In this document: positions 24,314 to 56,992 of the stretch, in pieces
How positions within the stretch are numbered: the stretch's first letter is position 1
Layout: each line of letters opens with the position of its first letter
Origin: Candidatus Aenigmatarchaeota archaeon
GTDB taxonomy: Archaea > Aenigmatarchaeota > Aenigmatarchaeia > GW2011-AR5
Assembly (NCBI GenBank): GCA_016187335.1
Contig: JACPJW010000001.1
Coordinates: 288,001-352,000, forward strand
Length of the DNA: 64,000 nucleotides
Direction of reading: 5' to 3'
Made by a program: the position numbers and the translations under genes
The notes under the pieces: generated by a model
Databases searched by the model: none
What the model saw: only the letters and a program-made list of their open reading frames with translations
What the model was told of the DNA's origin: nothing

Positions 24314-25290
24314 ATCCTGTGACAACCCACGTTACGTACAGGCCTCATTATTGCGACAAAAGGTACGGGGAATACGTAGCCGACAGGATATACCACATGA
24401 GGCTTTTCAATATACCCAGAAACATCCCGGCCGTTTCAAACATAGTCATAGGCAGGATAAACTCATTCCTGCTGCCAAAGGATTCCGTATATCTGTGCAA
24501 CGGGGCGTTTGAGCTGTACCCGGTTTACTACAGGAAGCCTGGAGCGAAGGTCGTGACGATGATGAAGGAGCTCACTTTCTGGGCTTTTGATTCGATGCCA
24601 AGGTACAAGCAGGACTTTTTGAAAAAACTCTTCTCCGTCAACACTGGAATCATAACAGACACCGAAATGATGAAGGCGCTGATAGAAAGGCACATAGACG
24701 TCCGCATAGAAGTGGTGAATCCTTTCTGCGCGCAGCCGTTTCTTGAAAACAAGCCGGACCTTGAGGCGAAAAGGATTGCTTTCATAGGCTCTTTTGAATC
24801 TCCCAACAAAGGCTACAGTGAACTTCTGGATGCGTTCAAGCTGCTGAGGAAAGGCGATAAAGAATGGGAGCTCTACATGATAGGAAAGCGCGGGACAGAC
24901 TTTGTAAAGGAAAGTGTGGACGGGCTTCATGTGACAAACTTTGTGCCGTCGTTAAGGCCGTACCTGTCCAGATGCTCCATATACGTCCATCCGGCGCGTT
25001 TTGAGCCTTTCGGCATCAGCGTTTTGGAGGCCATGAGCGCCGGAGTCATCCCTGTTGTAACAAAGGCTACAGGGACTTCCGAGGTTCTGGAAAAAAACGG
25101 CCTGAAAAACCTTGTCATTGAAAGCAACAAACCTGGAGAAATCGTGTCGAAAATAAATGAAATACACAATTACAGCAAAGCCAGGAAAAAAGGCATTTCG
25201 GCAAAATGCAAGAAAATAATAAAGTGTGCGTATCTGGAAAAGGAAGGCCTGAAGGATTTCAAGAAGAAGTTCGTCCGCATCATACAGTGA
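24310..25290 (+). CDS. Glycosyltransferase family 4 (tandem paralog of the previous gene)
   Basis: GTG start overlapping the previous stop; YVHPARFEPFGISVLEAM; shares YPVYY with the previous gene. Confidence 0.87.
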   Translation: MNPVTTHVTYRPHYCDKRYGEYVADRIYHMRLFNIPRNIPAVSNIVIGRINSFLLPKDSVYLCNGAFELYPVYYRKPGAKVVTMMKELTFWAFDSMPRYKQDFLKKLFSVNTGIITDTEMMKALIERHIDVRIEVVNPFCAQPFLENKPDLEAKRIAFIGSFESPNKGYSELLDAFKLLRKGDKEWELYMIGKRGTDFVKESVDGLHVTNFVPSLRPYLSRCSIYVHPARFEPFGISVLEAMSAGVIPVVTKATGTSEVLEKNGLKNLVIESNKPGEIVSKINEIHNYSKARKKGISAKCKKIIKCAYLEKEGLKDFKKKFVRIIQ

Positions 25291-26633: not shown

Positions 26634-27758
26634 TTACACCGAAACTTTTTTATAGAAAGCCTGCCTTGTCTTCCTGAAATCAACTTCCTTTCTGGCTTTC
26701 ATGGAGTTTTCCTTGAGTTTTTTGTATAGCTTTTTGTCGTCAATTATTTTGACTATAGCGTCAGCCATGTCATGCTCATTTGGCTCTACAAGAATTCCGG
26801 AGCCGAACGACTTGACAACATCAGCATGCTGGCCGGTATTTGTTATCAGAATCGGGTTCCCGCACGCCATGTACTCAAAGGGCTTGATGGACAGTGTTTC
26901 CTTAAGGATAGGGTCGTCCCTGAACGGGACAACGGTCAGGTCAGATCCTTTCAGATATTCTATGGCTTTGTCGTGGTTTATGTAGCCTGTAATATGAATG
27001 TTTTTGTCGTTGCCGGCAAGCCCTCTTATGGATGCTTCTTGCGACCCTCCCCCTAAAAGCAGCAGCCTGGATTTTCTTTTTTTCTCGACTTTTTTGAATG
27101 CCTTTACGAGCATGTCAACGCCGCGCCAGGGGTCAAAAGACCCGAAGTAAGCGATTGTGAATTCTTTCCACATCCTTTTGGGCTTTATTTTTTCTATCGA
27201 AGCCAGGTCGGCGCCGTTCATGGCGAGAAATACGTTTTCATTATAGCGGGAATATTCTTTTTTGAGGTGCTCAGAGACGACAAAAACAGAATCGGCCGTT
27301 CTTACCGCCATTATTTCCAGGTATCGTGAAAACATCCAGTATAAGCCTATTAAGGGCGATTTTCTTTTCTGGTAAGTATGGTATAAAGCTGTCTGAGGGT
27401 CTACGCATACCACGTATACCTTTTTCCCGAACAGCTTCAGGAATGGCATCGTAAGCGCTGTAAAAAATGTCGGCGTCATGAAAATTATGAGGTCCTGCAA
27501 AAGCAAAAGCGGCAGTAAAAGAAATAGCGTGAAAGTGTAAACTAGGTGGTCGGCAGGGCCGACTTCTGTTATTTTCCTGCCTCTCAAAGGGAAGGGTATG
27601 ATAATCTTCCTGACATGCGCGTCGCTGTAGGAAGTATAGGACTTTATGGACATCCTTTTCCCTTTCCTGAAAAGCATTACAGTTACCTTGCCTTCCAGCG
27701 GCCCGAGCCACTCGTTAACGTAATCCGATTCATGCACGCCAAATATTCTCTTTTTCAT
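26634..27758 (-). CDS. Glycosyltransferase family 4
   Basis: YFGSFDPWRG, SIKPFEYMACGNP. Confidence 0.87.
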   Translation of the reverse strand: MKKRIFGVHESDYVNEWLGPLEGKVTVMLFRKGKRMSIKSYTSYSDAHVRKIIIPFPLRGRKITEVGPADHLVYTFTLFLLLPLLLLQDLIIFMTPTFFTALTMPFLKLFGKKVYVVCVDPQTALYHTYQKRKSPLIGLYWMFSRYLEIMAVRTADSVFVVSEHLKKEYSRYNENVFLAMNGADLASIEKIKPKRMWKEFTIAYFGSFDPWRGVDMLVKAFKKVEKKRKSRLLLLGGGSQEASIRGLAGNDKNIHITGYINHDKAIEYLKGSDLTVVPFRDDPILKETLSIKPFEYMACGNPILITNTGQHADVVKSFGSGILVEPNEHDMADAIVKIIDDKKLYKKLKENSMKARKEVDFRKTRQAFYKKVSV

Positions 27759-49212: not shown

Positions 49213-49938
49213 ATGATTAGGAATACTGATTTGCTGAGGAGGGCCGGGAAGATAGAAGGCATGCTTACGGACAGGGAAATGCTTCTCCTCCGCAGCCTTG
49301 CGAAAAACGGGCCCGGAAAAGGGGCGATTGTCGAGATAGGAAGCTACAAGGGGAAGTCCACAGCATGCCTTGCCCTCGGGACGAAGGAAGCAAAAAGAGA
49401 GAAAGTGTTTGCGGTGGACTGGCATAAGGGATGGAAAAACGCGGTAAAGGGCGGGACATTCGGCGAGTTTTCAGAAAACATGAAAAAACTGGGCGTTGAA
49501 GATTACGTCATGCCTGTTGTAATGAAGTCCGAGGATGCGGCAGTGATATGGAGGAAAAAAAATGCGCCAATAAGGCTTCTTTGGATAGACGGGTCTCATG
49601 ATTACAAGGATGTCAGGAAAGATTTTGTCCTGTGGAACAGGTTTCTTGTGGAAGGCGGTATTGTGGCCTTTCACGATTCTTTCTGGGAGGGGCCTTACAG
49701 GGTTGTAAACGAATATCTGCTTAAATCCGGAAGGTTTTCCTGCGCGGGAATGGTGGATTACATAGCATTTGCCGTTAAGTCAAAGGCTGACGCCAAAGAA
49801 AGGAACAGGAACAGGAGAATGCTTTTGCTGCGTTCGCTGCTGAAGTACCCCATGAGAGCCGAGCATCTTCACCCCGCGTTCATAAACAGGATTATTAAAA
49901 ACAGGCTTCTCAGCGGCTTCAGGTCAGAAAAGTTTTAG
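49213..49938 (+). CDS. Class I SAM-dependent methyltransferase (Methyltransf_24-like)
   Basis: VEIGSYKGKS, WIDGSHDY, VAFHD. Confidence 0.87.
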   Translation: MIRNTDLLRRAGKIEGMLTDREMLLLRSLAKNGPGKGAIVEIGSYKGKSTACLALGTKEAKREKVFAVDWHKGWKNAVKGGTFGEFSENMKKLGVEDYVMPVVMKSEDAAVIWRKKNAPIRLLWIDGSHDYKDVRKDFVLWNRFLVEGGIVAFHDSFWEGPYRVVNEYLLKSGRFSCAGMVDYIAFAVKSKADAKERNRNRRMLLLRSLLKYPMRAEHLHPAFINRIIKNRLLSGFRSEKF

Positions 49939-51423
49939 CAGAAATTCCGGGACGGGTATCCCGGATTTTTTAAGGATGAGCAGCTCGTCTTTTTTCACCG
50001 TTTTCGTCAGGTACAGGGACGCCAGGTACACAACGGATCCCAGGAACAGCGCAATTACTGCTTCATGCCACGGGTCTGCTGAAACAAGATGCTTTGTGAA
50101 AGTTATTGCGGCAAAAGCGGCTGCGCCGCAGAAAAACGCCTTCACAATATCATGAGCATAAACATCCACAAGCGACATTTTTTTCAGGTAGCTTACGGCT
50201 AGAACAGTACCTATGAAATATGATACGAGGGTGGCAACCGCCGCTCCTGTTATTCCGACCGACGGTATCAGCAGGAGGTTGATCAGTATATTTGCGGCGC
50301 TTAGGGTTAGCACAATCCTCATGTTCTCTCTTGTTTTGCCGATTCCTATGATTGATATCGAGGTTACGGAAAAAACAGTGTAAAATATGGAATTAATAGC
50401 CAGTATTTGCAGCGCTGTTGACGCCCCCGCATACTTGGAGCCGAAAAGCATGGTTATTATAACTTCCGGAAATGCCACGATTGTTATAACAAAGGGTATC
50501 GCTACTATGAATGAAAATTTCAGCATAAGGCTCAATATTCGTGATATCGTGGCCGCGTCGCCTTTTGCCCAGAGTTCCGAAACTATCGGGAGTATGACAA
50601 TGGATACGGACCCCAGTAAAACCCATAATATCTGGGAGGTCGGCAGTGCAACTTGGTACAATCCCACGTCGGACACGGACAGAAAGGCTGTTATCATTAT
50701 CGTGTCTGCATAGCCGAGAAAAACGCCTCCTATGTTTGAAAAAAACAGCGGCTTCCCGAAATCGACTATCTCTTTTGTCAGTTTCCTGTCAAAATGCCCC
50801 TTCACGGAAAAAAACGGGAATGACTTCAGGATCATCAGGAACAGGATTATCGTCAGGGCTATTGTGCTGAACAAATAGCTGTATGAAACGCCCAGCAGCC
50901 CCATTGGAAGAAGAACTACGGCAAAAGCCAGTGTGATTATGTTTCTGAAAGGCTCTACTAAAGAATAAAGCTCTATTTTTCCCAGTCCCTGAAGAACGTA
51001 TTGAAGGGACACGAAAACCCCGAAAATAAAGGAAACCAGTATCGGGAATATTATAGTTTCAGCCTTGGCTGACTTGAAGAACGCCGAGGCAAGATAAGGC
51101 GATAAAACGAAAAATACGGAGGAAAAAATTAATGCCAGAAAAAGCTGCATCGCAATGACGGAATAAATCACCGACTTTATCGATTCGCTGTCATTTTTAG
51201 CCCTGAACTGCGCGATGAATCTTGTCATGGCTGAGGAAAACCCTATGTCCTTGAAGACGACAAGGAATCCAACAGCCGACAAAACTGCGTACAGCAGCCC
51301 GAAATCTTCCACGCTCAGGTTCCTTGCCAGATAAACCCTCAGGAGCGTGCTGAAGAAGCCGCCGATGAAATACATCGTGAATATCCAGAAGCTTCCCTTT
51401 ATGATTCTTTCGGCGTAATTCAT
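49924..51423 (-). CDS. Oligosaccharide flippase (Wzx/MOP family)
   Basis: 12-14 TM segments; DTIMIT...VGLYQVA; GAAVAT. Confidence 0.88.
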   Translation of the reverse strand: MNYAERIIKGSFWIFTMYFIGGFFSTLLRVYLARNLSVEDFGLLYAVLSAVGFLVVFKDIGFSSAMTRFIAQFRAKNDSESIKSVIYSVIAMQLFLALIFSSVFFVLSPYLASAFFKSAKAETIIFPILVSFIFGVFVSLQYVLQGLGKIELYSLVEPFRNIITLAFAVVLLPMGLLGVSYSYLFSTIALTIILFLMILKSFPFFSVKGHFDRKLTKEIVDFGKPLFFSNIGGVFLGYADTIMITAFLSVSDVGLYQVALPTSQILWVLLGSVSIVILPIVSELWAKGDAATISRILSLMLKFSFIVAIPFVITIVAFPEVIITMLFGSKYAGASTALQILAINSIFYTVFSVTSISIIGIGKTRENMRIVLTLSAANILINLLLIPSVGITGAAVATLVSYFIGTVLAVSYLKKMSLVDVYAHDIVKAFFCGAAAFAAITFTKHLVSADPWHEAVIALFLGSVVYLASLYLTKTVKKDELLILKKSGIPVPEFLLKLF

Positions 51424-52508
51424 TGCAATCCCTCGTATAGCTTTTCCACGCTCTTGGCAACGCTATCCCATGAGTATTTTTTTGCCGTATTAAGCCCGTT
51501 CTTTATGACCTGCCTTCTGCTTTTTTTGGATGTCAGCATCTCCATTATTTTTTCCTTCAGTTCGGATTCGCTGCTGTATAAACGCGAGTTGCCGCTGTTG
51601 CAGAAAAAATAGGCATCAAGGTTTTTTGCCACGACAGGAACTCCTGCTGCCATGGATTCAAGCAGGATCAGGCCCAGCCCTTCCACGGAAGACGGGTTGA
51701 CGAGCAGGTCCGAGGATTTTATTATGCCGAATTTTTCCTCCTCGCTCACATATCCGAAAAATTTGGCGTCCACTCCCAGGCGCTGGGCGAGCCGTTTCAG
51801 CTCGTATTCGTCGGTTCCGGACCCTATGATGTTGAGCCTTATGCCTTTGATTTCAGAAGAAATCTCGCCTATTATTTTTATCAGCGTGTCGACATTCTTG
51901 TATTTTACAAGCCTTCCTACGTAAGTGATGCTTAGCTCTCTTTTTTTTGCCCTGATTTTTTTTATAAAATTTAAGTCAACTCCGCTCGGTATTACTTCCA
52001 CGTTTCTGAACCCCAGGATGGAAAGTTTTTTTGCCGTCGTTGGCGAGTTGGCTATGACCCTGTTATAAGGCGTTACTGACCAAAGGACTTCCATCGTTTT
52101 GCCCGCGGAAGAAAGGGGGAACGGAAAGTACTCGTTCCACTGGTTCCAGTAGATGTCGTGGAATGTTGCGACTACAGGAGTTTTTATGAGCGGCTTAAGC
52201 AGTCCTGCAAAGGATGATATTCCCTGATTGGCGTCTATTACGTCGCTGCGGGAAGAAGCAGCCTTGAGCAGCGCCGGGAAATAAGTTGCCAGCGCCGGGA
52301 CGCTCCTCTTGTCAAGGGGATGCGACGAGCCGACTCTCGTTATTTCAACGCCTTTGTGCTCCTCTTTCCTTTCGTGCCCGTCAAATCTCAGCGAGAAAAC
52401 AGTGACTTCATGCCTTTTTGCCAGCCTTATGGCTATTTCATAGTATCTTCTTTCGGCTCCTCCAAGAAGGTACGGGTAGAAAAGCTCCGAAAGCATGCAT
52501 ATTTTCAT
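51420..52508 (-). CDS. Glycosyltransferase family 4
   Basis: GGAERR, YVGRLVKYKN, EGLGLILLESMAAG. Confidence 0.9.
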   Translation of the reverse strand: MKICMLSELFYPYLLGGAERRYYEIAIRLAKRHEVTVFSLRFDGHERKEEHKGVEITRVGSSHPLDKRSVPALATYFPALLKAASSRSDVIDANQGISSFAGLLKPLIKTPVVATFHDIYWNQWNEYFPFPLSSAGKTMEVLWSVTPYNRVIANSPTTAKKLSILGFRNVEVIPSGVDLNFIKKIRAKKRELSITYVGRLVKYKNVDTLIKIIGEISSEIKGIRLNIIGSGTDEYELKRLAQRLGVDAKFFGYVSEEEKFGIIKSSDLLVNPSSVEGLGLILLESMAAGVPVVAKNLDAYFFCNSGNSRLYSSESELKEKIMEMLTSKKSRRQVIKNGLNTAKKYSWDSVAKSVEKLYEGLQ

Positions 52509-52556
52509 GGTAACTCTTCAGAACTAATTTTTTATATGCTTATCTCGGATACGTTG

Positions 52557-53720
52557 TCATTCGCCAAATTTTACCCTGAAGAGCTTGACTTCCCCGCCCC
52601 AGTCCCTTATGAATTCGAATTTTTCCAGGCCGAAGCCGTTGAAAAAGAACATTCTTGTAAACATTGACTGCTCCAGTTCAGGCTGGATAAATACAATGGT
52701 TCTCCTCGACCCGTCAAGCCACAGTAGCCCTTTGACATCCGATTCCTGTTCAAACGTCAGCGCCCCGTTCCCTTCCCTGTCAAAGTAAAACAGTTTCTCT
52801 ACTTTCAGCAGCTGCCCCTGCTGCTGAAGGAACGCCTTGATGGTGTTGTTGGTTTCGTAAAGGACAAACGCCTGCTGGGGACCCAGGCGGTAAGTGTATG
52901 CCAGGGCGTTCTGGCCTAGAATAGGCCTTGTGCTTTCCAGCGGCACCATGACGTATACGTACCTGCTGCCGTAGTTTGGCGGGTTTGTTGGATCCCATGT
53001 GGCAAAATAAGACCACCACTGGCTTTTGCTTATCAGGTCAGAAGACGCTATGTAATACATTTCGTCGCAGCCGGGCTTCATGTAATCTTTCAGAATGCTG
53101 GCCGCCAGCGTTTCGTTTGTTGTGAGCAGTGTGGTCCCGATGTCCTGTATCCTTGCTCTTACTACGTTGTCGCCCTTGTACTGGAAGACGCGCGATATCC
53201 CGTTCTCATGCCTTTCGATGAATATGCCTGTTTTATTGCCAGTGTTCGGCTGGTAGAAAACCTCGCTCTGTGAGGCGCCGTCAAAAATCACGGACCTTTT
53301 TGCTATGCCGGTTATGAAGTGCCCCGGATCCCAGTACGTAGCCACGACGGCGCACCCCTTTGTGTTGTTCTTTATCCAGTTCAGCGCCTCCCACCAGTTG
53401 TCGCTCAGCACAGTTCCGGAGCACTCGGATATGATTACGCTCTGCATGTAAAACACGTTTATGAAAAATACGAAAATCAGCACGAGTATCAGCATTGTCA
53501 CCGTTTCCCTCGTGCTCAGGTTATTCCTGAACCTGAGCGCCGCCAGCAAAGCCAGGACGACGAATGTCCCTATGTACAGTTGCATGCCGTAGGAACTTTG
53601 CCATGACGCGTCGCTGACCAGGTTGCATGTGGTCTTGGTCGGCAAATAAAGAAATACCAGAAAATAAACTATTGCAACTGCCAAAACAGCTGCTGTCGTC
53701 CTGTTCATCCTGAATTCCAT
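52557..53720 (-). CDS. aglB: Oligosaccharyltransferase AglB/STT3, C-terminal half
   Basis: Three TM segments, then WWEALNWIKNNT, YWDPGH (WWDxG motif variant), FDG, DLISK (DK-type motif), SMFTRM. Confidence 0.85.
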   Translation of the reverse strand: MEFRMNRTTAAVLAVAIVYFLVFLYLPTKTTCNLVSDASWQSSYGMQLYIGTFVVLALLAALRFRNNLSTRETVTMLILVLIFVFFINVFYMQSVIISECSGTVLSDNWWEALNWIKNNTKGCAVVATYWDPGHFITGIAKRSVIFDGASQSEVFYQPNTGNKTGIFIERHENGISRVFQYKGDNVVRARIQDIGTTLLTTNETLAASILKDYMKPGCDEMYYIASSDLISKSQWWSYFATWDPTNPPNYGSRYVYVMVPLESTRPILGQNALAYTYRLGPQQAFVLYETNNTIKAFLQQQGQLLKVEKLFYFDREGNGALTFEQESDVKGLLWLDGSRRTIVFIQPELEQSMFTRMFFFNGFGLEKFEFIRDWGGEVKLFRVKFGE

Positions 53721-53730
53721 GGTAACCCAC

Positions 53731-54906
53731 TCAATCGGCCAGTGACTTGTCCTCTCCGGATGCCATCCTTAAAAGCTTTGAAAAGAGGATGCCCGTGCCT
53801 ATTGCCATCGGCGCGGCGAAAAGTATTGTAAACCTTATTGCAACTATTGTTGCAAGGAAAGGCCCTACGAACCATATCCCCAGAAGTATCAGCGTATCGA
53901 GGTGTTTTTTCGTCCTGATGTAAGAATACGACAGGTAAATCAGCGATGCAATGAGCAGGAAAAAGGGAAGGCCTGTCCTGTTTATTATGTCGCGCGGGCC
54001 TTCGGGATTCTGCAGCTCCGCTACGGAAACGTACACATTGGGGAAAGTCCCGCCTTCGGCTTTTATCGAGGGGAATTCGAGGGGTCCCGTGACCGTGGCA
54101 TTGACTATGCTGAATCCGAATATGGGTATGGCCAGAATGAAGAAAGTGAGCAGAATCAATATGTAGGATTTGATGATCACGTTGTTTTCCTGCCATAATT
54201 TCCTCAAATCCCTGGTTTTTATGTATTTTGAAAGCATTTTCAAAAAAAGGAATCCTGATATTAGCCACAGGACGTACCAGAATCCGCCCCATGTCAGTCT
54301 CCACGCAACAAGCGTGGCGCCTGTTAAAATGGAAAGGGCGCCTATTTTCCATGTTAATCTTTCCGCTCTTTCGGACAGCCTGTGCGTGACAAGGTAGAGT
54401 GCTATTATGACAAGGGGCATAAGCAACACTATCCCGTCGTTGTCGGGGTCGCCGCCGAGCGTCCTTGCTATTATGAACGTGTCAAAAATTATCATGGCTG
54501 CCGCAAAAATTCCGGCCTTCCTGTCGTAAAGCATTTTTGTTATGAAATACATGGGCACTGCCATCAGCGACGCAAGCAGGGCGGGAAACCATACAAGGTA
54601 TTGCCAGAGGGTCATTCCTGGTATCAGCAGCCTGAGAAACATGTAAAAATATGCCCCGACATATGCGTAGAAATCCTGGCCGCGTTTTGTGCCGTACGGG
54701 GCAAGCTTCAGCACGTCAACTCCCGGCAGTGTCCCGTTGTTCTCGGTTATTTCTTCCATTTCCTTGGCAAAATTGTACGAGTCTATGTTTCTCAGGTAGG
54801 GCCATCTGTAGTCCAGCGTTCTTACCGTCGTGCCGAGATAAATCAGGAAAATAAGGACGATATAAGGCCAGTATTTTTTTATCATTTCAGCAGTTCTTTC
54901 CTTCAT
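53731..54906 (-). CDS. aglB: Oligosaccharyltransferase AglB/STT3, N-terminal membrane half
   Basis: DSY (metal ligand), RTLGGDPDND (DxD), SVAE (TIXE/SVSE motif), AIRF. Confidence 0.85.
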   Translation of the reverse strand: MKERTAEMIKKYWPYIVLIFLIYLGTTVRTLDYRWPYLRNIDSYNFAKEMEEITENNGTLPGVDVLKLAPYGTKRGQDFYAYVGAYFYMFLRLLIPGMTLWQYLVWFPALLASLMAVPMYFITKMLYDRKAGIFAAAMIIFDTFIIARTLGGDPDNDGIVLLMPLVIIALYLVTHRLSERAERLTWKIGALSILTGATLVAWRLTWGGFWYVLWLISGFLFLKMLSKYIKTRDLRKLWQENNVIIKSYILILLTFFILAIPIFGFSIVNATVTGPLEFPSIKAEGGTFPNVYVSVAELQNPEGPRDIINRTGLPFFLLIASLIYLSYSYIRTKKHLDTLILLGIWFVGPFLATIVAIRFTILFAAPMAIGTGILFSKLLRMASGEDKSLAD

Positions 54907-54959
54907 TATCCGTTATCTCAAGAACAATCTTCTTAAAAGTTAAATTCAAAACATCCCCT

Positions 54960-55892
54960 ATGAAAAAAAGATACGCGCTTGTTCTGCTGAGCGTTCTGAT
55001 TCTCGCCGGTTTGCTTTTCTATTCTGATCCGCAGAAAGTGTACGGCATTTTCCTGCTTAGTGACAAGTCATTTCTGCTTTACGCCTTTCTCATATCGAGC
55101 GCGGGCGTTTTCTTAAGGGTCATGAAATGGAAGCTGCTTCTGAAAAATGCCTCTTTTTTTGATGTTATGCCTGTGCAGTTCCTGGGGTCGACCATAAGCA
55201 ACTTTACTCCGGGGAAGTTCGGCGAGCCTGCAAAAGCGGTTATAATGAAGGCAAAAACCGGCATTCCGGTTTCCCGCACGCTTTCCTCAATAATCTGGGA
55301 AAGGATCATGGACATACTCGTCCTTCTCCTGTTTTCCGCCGTATTCATAGGCAGGTTTTCTTCCGGCCTTTTTGCAGCGGGTGTGTTCAGCGCATTTTTT
55401 TTCGCTGGTGTACTTGTCTTCTTTTTTTCTGTTCTTTACTCCAAAAGATTCGGGATGAAAGTTTTCGGCGTCCTGAAAAAGATGCCGCTGGCGGACAGGA
55501 TATCCGGCGAGTTTATAGAGACTTTTTACAGGGAAAAAATAAATAAAAAATTCCTGATGATGTCGTTTTTCATTACGCTGTTTGCGTGGGTAACCGACGG
55601 CCTTGTATTTTATCTTTCCTTCCGCTCTGTCGGCATTGATTTGGACCCTGTATTTTTTGTCGGGCTGGTCTCGGTGTCAGCCCTGATAGGGATTGCGTCA
55701 TTCCTGCCAGGCGGGCTGGGTTCGACTGATGTCGTGATGGTCCTGCTGCTTTCCGCGTTTATGGATGGTTCCCTAGCAGTTACAGGCGTTTTCGTGGCCA
55801 GGATTATGACTTTCTGGTATTCGTCGCTTCTGGGATGGGCTTCCTTTGTTTACCTTGGCAGGAATATAGAACTGGGAAAAATTCTGGATTAG
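54960..55892 (+). CDS. UPF0104/lysylphosphatidylglycerol-synthase-TM flippase-like protein
   Basis: RVMKW, TPGKFGE, ERIMD, LPGGLG. Confidence 0.85.
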   Translation: MKKRYALVLLSVLILAGLLFYSDPQKVYGIFLLSDKSFLLYAFLISSAGVFLRVMKWKLLLKNASFFDVMPVQFLGSTISNFTPGKFGEPAKAVIMKAKTGIPVSRTLSSIIWERIMDILVLLLFSAVFIGRFSSGLFAAGVFSAFFFAGVLVFFFSVLYSKRFGMKVFGVLKKMPLADRISGEFIETFYREKINKKFLMMSFFITLFAWVTDGLVFYLSFRSVGIDLDPVFFVGLVSVSALIGIASFLPGGLGSTDVVMVLLLSAFMDGSLAVTGVFVARIMTFWYSSLLGWASFVYLGRNIELGKILD

Positions 55893-56992
55893 CTGGATAT
55901 TTCTTTCCTGAACAGGTGCGGCACGGAAGAAATTATAAATGAAAGCAGCTTGATTTTGGGCATTTTCTTCCATGAAACGGTGAACTTGTCGTAGTCAAAG
56001 TCGTGCAGTTCCTGCAAAGATGGGCCGAAATCCCTGAACAGTCCGTCGACATCCTTGTTTGTAAGCCACCTGTAGATGCGCCGGAATAAAAGCTGCCTCC
56101 TTATCTCGGCGCCGTAGTCCTTTTTCCATTTCCTTTCATAAGACGACAGGAAATTCTCGCCAAAAAGATTTTTCTCGAATGCCTCCTGAATGACAGCAGC
56201 GGCATGTTTCGCCGCCCTCATGGAAAACATGATGCCGCCGCCGGTTATCGGCTTGTTCTGTCCGCACGCGTCTCCTATCAGCAAAGCCCGGTCCGCAAAG
56301 GATTTCGTGGTTCCAAGGCACATCGGGAATCCGTAAACTGTCCCGTTGCCTAATGCCTGCTTTTGCCTGAAATATTCCAGATATTCATTGGGCCTTAACG
56401 ACGATATGAGCCCGTATTCGTCGTTCTGCGGTATGACCCATGAGAAAAAGTCCGGTGAGAAGTATTTATTGAAAAAGACCCTTATTTCCCCTTCCATTAC
56501 GCTGTCTGCTCTCACCATAAGGCCGAATACCATCCTGGGATCGGCTATGCCAAGGGATTTTCTTACAAAGGAATTTGCCCCGTCGCATCCGACGAGAAAT
56601 TTTGCGTTGATGCTCTCGCCGTTGACGCTGACGGAATAGTGGCCGTCGCGGTATTCAACGCTTTTTACGAAGCCGTTGATGAAATCCGCGCTTCTCATCG
56701 CCCTGCTCCGCATGTAGTCAAGGAACATTTCCCTTTTTAGTATGTAGGCAAAGGGGGCTTCCGACGAAATTTCTATTTCACTGCCGGACGGCGAGACCAG
56801 GTTCATCCTTGTTATCCTGTTTTTTATGAAGTGCCTTGAAGGAAACAGCTTTTCAAAACCCGTCGATACGATTCCCGAGTCTTTTGGAAGCACTTTCCTG
56901 TCCTTTTCTATTACAGCTATGTCCAGGCCCCTGAGCGCGGATGCTAAATAGCTTCCGCCTATTCCTGACCCTACGATTGCGACATCGTACAT
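55889..56992 (-). CDS. Geranylgeranyl reductase-family FAD oxidoreductase
   Basis: VGSGIGG, VGCDGANS, FSWVIP, IGDACGQNKPITGGGI. Confidence 0.87.
   Translation of the reverse strand: MYDVAIVGSGIGGSYLASALRGLDIAVIEKDRKVLPKDSGIVSTGFEKLFPSRHFIKNRITRMNLVSPSGSEIEISSEAPFAYILKREMFLDYMRSRAMRSADFINGFVKSVEYRDGHYSVSVNGESINAKFLVGCDGANSFVRKSLGIADPRMVFGLMVRADSVMEGEIRVFFNKYFSPDFFSWVIPQNDEYGLISSLRPNEYLEYFRQKQALGNGTVYGFPMCLGTTKSFADRALLIGDACGQNKPITGGGIMFSMRAAKHAAAVIQEAFEKNLFGENFLSSYERKWKKDYGAEIRRQLLFRRIYRWLTNKDVDGLFRDFGPSLQELHDFDYDKFTVSWKKMPKIKLLSFIISSVPHLFRKEISS

Follow-up and report, generated by a model that had tools for sequence, protein, structure and literature searches.

In the characterized enzymes known to us, the AglB/STT3 catalytic subunit of the oligosaccharyltransferase (OST) is one chain with 13 transmembrane (TM) helices and an external C-terminal domain. 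Here, we describe a locus at which this subunit is encoded by two adjacent genes, termed aglB-N and aglB-C, in a 64,000-nucleotide (nt) stretch of the genome of Candidatus Aenigmatarchaeota archaeon (GTDB lineage Archaea; Aenigmatarchaeota; Aenigmatarchaeia; GW2011-AR5; GenBank assembly GCA_016187335.1, contig JACPJW010000001.1, positions 288,001 to 352,000 of the forward strand); this whole stretch is referred to below as the window. The two genes are separate, conserved, and co-inherited, and we consider it very likely that they represent a real, inherited two-gene AglB of the STT3 family with the glycosyltransferase C (GT-C) fold, whose products work as two assembled chains. We regard the two-gene AglB as a conserved variant of a known enzyme, for which we infer OST activity of the two chains together.

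Among the described single-chain enzymes, AglB-L of Archaeoglobus fulgidus (AfAglB-L; Protein Data Bank [PDB] codes 3WAJ, 3WAK, 5GMY, and 7E9S) is the best structural match of aglB-N. It shares with the window's proteins the GT-C core with external loops 1 and 5 (EL1 and EL5), the acidic residues, and the conserved Arg, as well as a last TM helix that leads into an external globular domain, in which the window has a candidate variant of the WWDYG motif, usually described as nearly invariant. In contrast, AfAglB-L is one 13-TM polypeptide, whereas the window encodes two (12 + 3 TM helices), cut in the loop between TM12 and TM13; it carries WWDYG where the window has YWDPG; and its external domain greatly exceeds that of the window (about 290 amino acids [aa]). 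The best match of aglB-C is PglB of Campylobacter (3RCE, 5OGL, 6GXC; C-terminal domain, 3AAG), both as a TM13-plus-domain unit and as the isolated domain. In PglB, binding of the metal and of the lipid-linked oligosaccharide (LLO) falls to the TM domain and that of the +2 Ser/Thr to the periplasmic domain, a division of labor that the window's two proteins would share; unlike them, PglB is bacterial and a single chain, with an MI-type pocket motif instead of the putative DK-type one. Nearer relatives are the fused AglB proteins of other Aenigmatarchaeia families (about 690-740 aa, 25-35% identity), which have WWDPGH and two helices between the RF and WWDPG motifs; these are encoded by one gene and form the sister group of a mostly split clade in our tree (see below).

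Split genes are known from the DPANN archaeon Nanoarchaeum equitans, e.g., those for reverse gyrase and alanyl-tRNA synthetase (AlaRS), the parts of which are sometimes unlinked. The window is similar in that a normally single-chain enzyme is found as two genes in a reduced archaeal genome. To our knowledge, no polytopic membrane glycosyltransferase is among the DPANN split genes, and the cut described here differs from those of N. equitans in that it separates a membrane core from the last TM helix plus a catalytic-site domain and in that the parts have been fused and split repeatedly. Elsewhere in the N-glycosylation pathway, fission followed by independent re-fusions is documented by Alg13/Alg14 and EpsE/EpsF versus the fused MurG-like Agl24 (PMC8993221, PMC4973528); these are of the GT-B type, act at the cytoplasmic face, and are not oligosaccharyltransferases. 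A full-text literature search retrieved no description of a split AglB/STT3, with a prior mention being possible in the survey of Nikolayev et al. 2020 (Mol Phylogenet Evol).

The two-gene aglB locus and its proteins

The two open reading frames (ORFs) lie on the minus strand in different frames and are separated by 10 nt, as follows.

53731..54906, minus strand: aglB-N, ORF of 391 aa with a TGA stop, comprising TM1-TM12 of the STT3/AglB GT-C core, EL1 and EL5 included
53721..53730, minus strand: intergenic spacer of 10 nt, from the TGA stop of aglB-N to the ATG of aglB-C
52557..53720, minus strand: aglB-C, ORF of 387 aa with its ATG at 53720, in which an extra TM hairpin precedes the TM13 equivalent and the globular domain outside the membrane

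The frame of aglB-C is open for 16 codons (48 nt) 5' of its own ATG, and in-frame read-through of the aglB-N stop leads into an unrelated 69-aa ORF (53521..53730). An initial annotation made from the DNA alone had reported STT3/AglB motifs divided between two ORFs 10 nt apart in different frames, with non-homologous sequence on in-frame read-through; all of these sequence statements hold, the strand being minus. The source genome (1.01 Mb in two contigs, 90.8% complete) has a single STT3 locus, as determined by a genome search. Names given to homologues in public data assign this genome to Candidatus Aenigmarchaeota/Aenigmatarchaeota.

The aglB-N protein matches the Pfam STT3 profile PF02516 with 68.6 bits (cutoff, 24.5; E = 1e-18) over profile positions 21 to 374 of 405. 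Against TIGR04154 (archaeo_STT3, archaeosortase A associated), with a cutoff of 450 bits, it scores 76.8 bits and aglB-C scores 11 bits, and the window's AglB lies outside this subfamily. The AlphaFold2 (AF2) model of aglB-N (mean predicted local distance difference test [pLDDT] score, 89.9) has 12 TM helices and a structured EL1 and ends after TM12; residues 287 to 291 in EL5 are of low confidence, as expected for a flexible EL5. Foldseek searches of the PDB with this model recovered AfAglB (7e9s; E = 2.7e-9) as the best match, along with PglB and yeast and human STT3 (query-normalized template-modeling score [TMq] of up to 0.73, reached by yeast), with AfAglB, STT3, and PglB all at a Foldseek probability of 1.00. 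The catalytic motifs of this half are as follows, with invariance given for the 70 aligned N-halves.

54775..54798, minus strand: YLRNIDSY, with Asp42 in EL1, the first catalytic acidic residue; D42 invariant in 70/70
54436..54453, minus strand: GDPDND (residues 152-157), DxD type; D153, D155, and D157 invariant in 70/70
54010..54027, minus strand: SVAELQ, EL5 motif of the TIXE/SVSE type, with Glu297; S294 and E297 invariant in 70/70
53830..53841, minus strand: AIRF, with Arg358 at the TM11/TM12 boundary; R358 and F359 invariant in 70/70

In a phmmer alignment to 6s7o_A, D155-N-D157 pairs with the D-N-E of human STT3A.

When aglB-C alone was scanned against Pfam and NCBIfam, only noise was returned (DUF998, E = 0.056; HaoB, E = 0.029). 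Its AF2 model (pLDDT, 94.4) places helices at residues 7-29, 38-64, and 70-100 ahead of a domain of mixed alpha/beta structure, and in Foldseek searches of the PDB, the top 36 matches to this model are all OST catalytic subunits or isolated C-terminal domains thereof, the best being PglB (5ogl; E = 2.9e-12), with the isolated PglB C-terminal domain at 1e-9. A profile built from 12 C-halves matches human STT3A at residues 465-555, WWDYG included (E = 4e-7), and AfAglB-L at 465-516; the parts so aligned are the last TM helix and the YWDPG region. The features of this half are as follows, again with invariance among 70 C-halves.

53514..53720, minus strand: extra TM hairpin, residues 1-69 (helices 7-29 and 38-64), its external loop carrying TTC with Cys32, from the AF2 model and hydropathy
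53421..53513, minus strand: TM13-equivalent helix, residues 70-100, ending in Cys100, matched in alignment by the final TM helix of STT3A and AfAglB-L
53313..53342, minus strand: ATYWDPGHFI (residues 127-136), variant of WWDYG; Y129, W130, D131, P132, G133, and H134 invariant in 70/70
53010..53042, minus strand: SDLISKSQWWS, candidate DK-type motif; D228, K232, W235, and W236 invariant in 70/70

Relative to WWDYG, YWDPG retains the central W-D and the G and differs at two of five positions (Y129 for W and P132 for Y). The replacement of the motif's Tyr by Pro, an unusual change, extends across the class, with WWDPGH in the fused families (loci L033-L039) and YWDPGH in the split clade. Two further Cys residues of the external domain, Cys123 (53349-53360), just before the YWDPG strand, and Cys218 (53064-53075), just before the DK-type helix, are also invariant in all 70 C-halves and constitute a candidate structural disulfide of this AglB lineage.

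In the canonical fused relatives from other Aenigmatarchaeia families, 86 to 90 residues with two helices (TM12 and TM13) separate RF from WWDPG, and split forms have their gene boundary between these two helices. The window and loci L003 and L004 were left out of this count, as the RF pattern there matches an ALRF inside the C-half hairpin, and the window's own helix count was taken from the AF2 models. The 12-helix model of aglB-N, together with the position of the boundary in the relatives, places the cut in the cytoplasmic TM12-TM13 loop, in agreement with the split point proposed in the initial annotation: aglB-N ends 8 residues past TM12, aglB-C starts 6 residues ahead of a TM helix, and two ORFs with 12 and 3 TM helices stand in place of one polypeptide with 13. 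Split inteins were considered at this site and rejected, there being no extra length or intein-like segment at the cut.

Conservation and history of the split

We examined 15 loci from the same order that span the junction, namely, 11 of family f1 plus L016-L019 (the labels G, L, f, and g denote relative genomes, loci, families, and genera). In all 15, the STT3 ORF is closed by a stop codon, ending in ...(G)EDKxLxD or EKLED in most, and the C-half ORF starts between -20 and +10 nt from the N-half stop (+65 in one). The geometry of the junction varies, with an in-frame TAA directly followed by ATG, gaps of 1, 2, 4, or 10 nt, or overlaps, and TAA, TAG, and TGA are all used. Across the order, 57 of 70 genomes gave a match, and 55 of these 57 have a stand-alone C-half frame of 244 to 517 aa. 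In a collection of 5.8 billion proteins, we recovered stand-alone forms of both halves, >120 of the C-half (296-488 aa) and >120 of the N-half (316-519 aa, with PF02516 in every case), including several pairs with adjacent NCBI locus tags, while only three fused proteins of at least 679 aa match the C-half at E <= 1e-20. In addition to the stand-alone C-halves, some relatives, other than the window genome, show extra weak matches to C-half residues ~54-160 (last TM helix and WWDYG region) at E values of 1e-4 to 1e-7 in open frames of 413 to 492 aa (G012:C2 [27176-27472, 24922-25140], G019:C14, G021:C61, G007:C21, G035:C40, and G020:C64); these may represent a second, divergent STT3-like paralogue.

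The strongest single result comes from genus g170 of family f40. In three of its genomes (L040-L042 and L021-L023), an N-half of 412-414 aa and a C-half of 329-331 aa lie on different contigs with unrelated neighbors: an unrelated ORF follows the N-half, and a YchF-like GTPase gene precedes the C-half. Neither a frameshift nor read-through can join halves that are so placed, and hence they must be separate proteins in that lineage. In the congeneric G370, the two halves are adjacent, and a recent rearrangement seems to have pulled apart what were two genes beforehand. Comparison with a same-genus relative of the window gave ratios of nonsynonymous to synonymous substitution rates (dN/dS) of 0.14 (N-half), 0.09 (C-half), and 0.13 (hairpin by itself), figures that are rough because dS is near saturation; they point to purifying selection on both halves.

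In a survey of 371 genomes of the class, fused frames of ~690-800 aa with 25-35% identity are the form seen in most families, and stand-alone C-halves occur in the window's order and in families f40, f18, and f27. We reconstructed a maximum-likelihood tree, rooted at the midpoint, from 32 concatenated or fused sequences in rows of our choosing, with L025 (G354), which is partly masked, omitted. The window's own order, f40, and f18 form a 100/100 clade in which 20 rows are split and 4 are fused (G030, G060, and G356/G358, which are nested inside the clade), while the split f27 pair falls on the other side of the tree among fused families. A minimum of four changes of state follows from the starred branches of this tree, and a single change suffices in 0 of 200 bootstrap trees, suggesting that fission or fusion recurred at least four times at the TM12-TM13 loop. 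On the simplest reading of the tree, the fused form would be ancestral in the class, and its history would include an old fission, several re-fusions, and one or more further fissions that hit this loop independently; which way each change went is conditional on the midpoint root.

Re-fusion is mechanistically easy, given that the stop and ATG codons lie 0 to 10 nt apart. Two likely cases, each resting on one metagenome-assembled genome, are found in families whose other members are split: G030 (L015) encodes a single fused AglB of 724 aa that retains 'EDK' where the two genes would have been divided, and G060 (L014) encodes one of 816 aa with two extra helices and without the Cys pair described below. 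The latter bears on a point that the initial annotation had named as speaking against its view, a close relative with one continuous AglB containing the same extra helices. G060 is such a protein with respect to the helices; the missing Cys pair and its place in the tree, surrounded by split forms, suggest that its gene was fused again secondarily, which would not refute the split.

The same annotation held that the C-half had gained two extra N-terminal helices. The window's C-half does have three helices, of which the last is TM13; the gain is not unique to it, with one, three, or five helices occurring in relatives. In 119 C-halves with a WDPG motif, a crude hydropathy predictor gave one helix before the domain in 42, three in 59, five in 6, and an even number or none in 12 (one further C-half without WDPG was not counted). 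The 12 even or zero calls are probably threshold misses, because their lengths are typical of the three-helix class. An odd number in 107 of 119, about nine-tenths, would keep the N terminus inside and the catalytic domain outside. Nor are hairpins tied to the split, as the fused G060 of the same order and the fused G251 of family f31 have four helices between RF and WDPG. In the window's subclade (>=57% identity), a long external loop separates the two extra helices, and Cys32 (TTC) and Cys100 (xxC-S/T-G; SECSG in the window) are the only two Cys residues before the domain in 9/9 aligned members, whereas a Cys at either position is found in 0/61 other C-halves; this co-occurrence amounts to a single phylogenetic event. 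Both residues, predicted earlier to be extracellular, are present and lie at outer helix ends in the AF2 model, where a Cys32-Cys100 disulfide may be hypothesized.

Proposed assembly of the two chains and alternative explanations

We co-folded the two chains in three runs, each chain being given as a 70-row alignment, together with three controls. The interface score ipSAE (interaction prediction score from aligned errors) was 0.82, 0.81, and 0.82, and that of the best control was 0.00; the mark applied to this score is reached by 58 of 80 solved complexes and by 2 of 110 mismatched pairs. At least 98% of contacts are common to the runs, and the partner pLDDT is >=86. The predicted interface comprises the following segments.

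N-half 24-48 (end of TM1 and EL1, around D42) with C-half 125-154 (YWDPG region)
N-half 134-151 (TM4) with C-half 71-105 (TM13 equivalent)
N-half 284-294 (EL5) and 375-384 (C-terminal tail)
C-half side: 187-192, 235-250, and the hairpin loop 24-32

The residue pairs with the least error (chain:residue) are 1:44 with 2:134-139, 1:141 with 2:86-94, and 1:28 with 2:91-98, and the TM13-equivalent helix contacts N-half residues 24-32 and 134-151. The models show that the halves would fit the canonical architecture; they are not evidence of binding.

These observations are consistent with the following mechanism. aglB-N would provide the metal- and LLO-binding residues Asp42 (EL1), D155xD157, Glu297 (EL5), and Arg358, and aglB-C, translated separately from a start 10 nt downstream, would provide the sequon-binding YWDPG and the DK-type motif. 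The two polypeptides would insert independently, with both cut ends on the cytoplasmic side, and dock at two contact surfaces, one formed by TM13 with TM1 and TM4 and the other by the external domain with EL1 and EL5. As such docking rebuilds one active site, neither half alone should glycosylate: the N-subunit would serve in metal and LLO binding and the C-subunit in sequon recognition, with activity requiring both. In the window's subclade, Cys32 and Cys100 may hold the hairpin and TM13 together.

A false indel at the junction, introduced by sequencing or assembly, has to be considered for any window from a metagenome-assembled genome; here, it is extremely improbable. Contigs assembled from four groundwater-metagenome runs (two studies, depths of 5 to 104, with depth 104 in one of the matching contigs) are identical to the window over 52400-55000, with no substitution and no indel that would fuse the ORFs, and the same split recurs in dozens of independently assembled genomes. 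The sequencing runs retrieved for the window included none of RNA. Decay of aglB through a recent frameshift in a reduced DPANN genome would fit the gene loss known in such genomes and the change of frame exactly at the boundary, but a pseudogene would not be expected to have a dN/dS of ~0.1 in both halves, hairpin included, to lack internal stops in either half, or to share its boundary with several families at about 25-60% residue divergence; we judge this explanation highly unlikely. Equally slight is the probability that programmed recoding, by ribosomal frameshifting or stop read-through, joins the ORFs. Their 10-nt distance and the 48 nt of open C-half frame upstream of its ATG would allow it, yet almost every relative has a junction of its own layout (the frame is offset by 0, +1, or +2, the ORFs overlap or are spaced apart, and three stop codons are in use), no slippery sequence is common to these junctions, every C-half has its own Met with a TM helix directly after it, and the g170 halves lie on different contigs. 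Recoding of TGA in particular was rejected, as the boundary stops are TAA, TAG, and TGA in relatives and the frames differ.

A different possibility is that both halves are real and no longer form a single OST; for example, the N-half might work by itself as another transferase of the GT-C type, and the C-half might bind glycans or peptides while anchored in the membrane. The unlinking seen in g170 and the modification of WWDYG to YWDPG would be in keeping with this. However, all of the residues for one shared active site are invariant in 70/70 across both halves, which co-occur in the split loci examined and are tightly coupled there outside g170; the presence of WWDPG in fused enzymes of the class implies that the variant predates the split; the co-fold sets the YWDPG region against EL1, beside Asp42; and the genome has no other STT3 to supply OST activity. 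We consider this explanation improbable, if somewhat less so than the preceding ones. An evolved heterodimer rather than an assembly error, as the initial annotation had suggested, is strongly supported by the clade-wide cut, the differing junctions, g170, the signs of purifying selection, and the identical contigs.

Several points weigh against an assembled two-chain OST or limit its evidence. The WWDYG motif of aglB-C is altered at two positions, and with its D-x-x-x-K spacing, the DK-type motif is a candidate assigned by position and resemblance only. Solved single-chain OSTs are arranged identically to the co-fold, so that its pass may stem from likeness to them. The contigs from the independent study, X5 and X6, are of low depth and extend past the junction into the C-half side by no more than 23 nt, with a coverage hole at 53680-53697. 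The tree rests on concatenated halves in 32 chosen rows, with L025 dropped. Fused forms nested among split ones (G030, G060, and G356/G358) indicate that fusion is tolerated, and hence the split need not be adaptive.

If the two genes do encode a two-chain OST, the last helix with the sequon-binding domain is able to fold and insert apart from the membrane core, both parts still being kept by selection, and the TM12-TM13 loop would be a natural cut site for OST engineering, labeling, and structural work. The families discussed above would also document, with good sampling, that the gene of a polytopic membrane enzyme has been split and fused repeatedly, with its halves even unlinked in one genus. 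Most C-halves are labeled 'hypothetical protein' at NCBI, and surveys that require a full-length AglB could therefore miss or mis-score N-glycosylation in Aenigmatarchaeota. As a speculation to which we give rather low credence, the split might be maintained as a two-subunit design rather than being a neutral accident, with a C-subunit that is made independently and may be exchangeable or regulated. The clade-specific hairpin and an extracellular Cys32-Cys100 disulfide would then act as a compensatory clamp in place of the lost covalent TM12-TM13 link, and the TM12-TM13 loop might be permissive in all STT3-family enzymes, allowing the catalytic subunit to be dismantled and rebuilt there.

Genomic setting

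The genes flanking aglB-N and aglB-C are as follows.

49924-51423, minus strand: Wzx/MurJ-like flippase (Pfam Polysacc_synt, E = 3e-28), overlapping the GT4 gene by 4 nt
51420-52508, minus strand: GT4 glycosyltransferase (Pfam Glycos_transf_1, E = 6e-29), downstream of aglB-C and separated from it by a gap of 48 nt
54960-55892, plus strand: membrane protein of the LPG_synthase_TM family, directly upstream of aglB-N
55889-56992, minus strand: geranylgeranyl-reductase-like flavin adenine dinucleotide (FAD) protein (FAD_binding_3 and Lycopene_cycl matches), upstream of aglB-N

Together with the two aglB genes, these four neighbors make up a small glycosylation island, within which the GT4 and flippase genes probably share an operon with aglB-N and aglB-C. 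Two ORFs that overlap aglB-N (53705-54352, minus strand, 215 aa; 54382-54936, plus strand, 184 aa) are without homology support and were treated as spurious. The geranylgeranyl-reductase-like protein could use dolichol or membrane lipids as a substrate.

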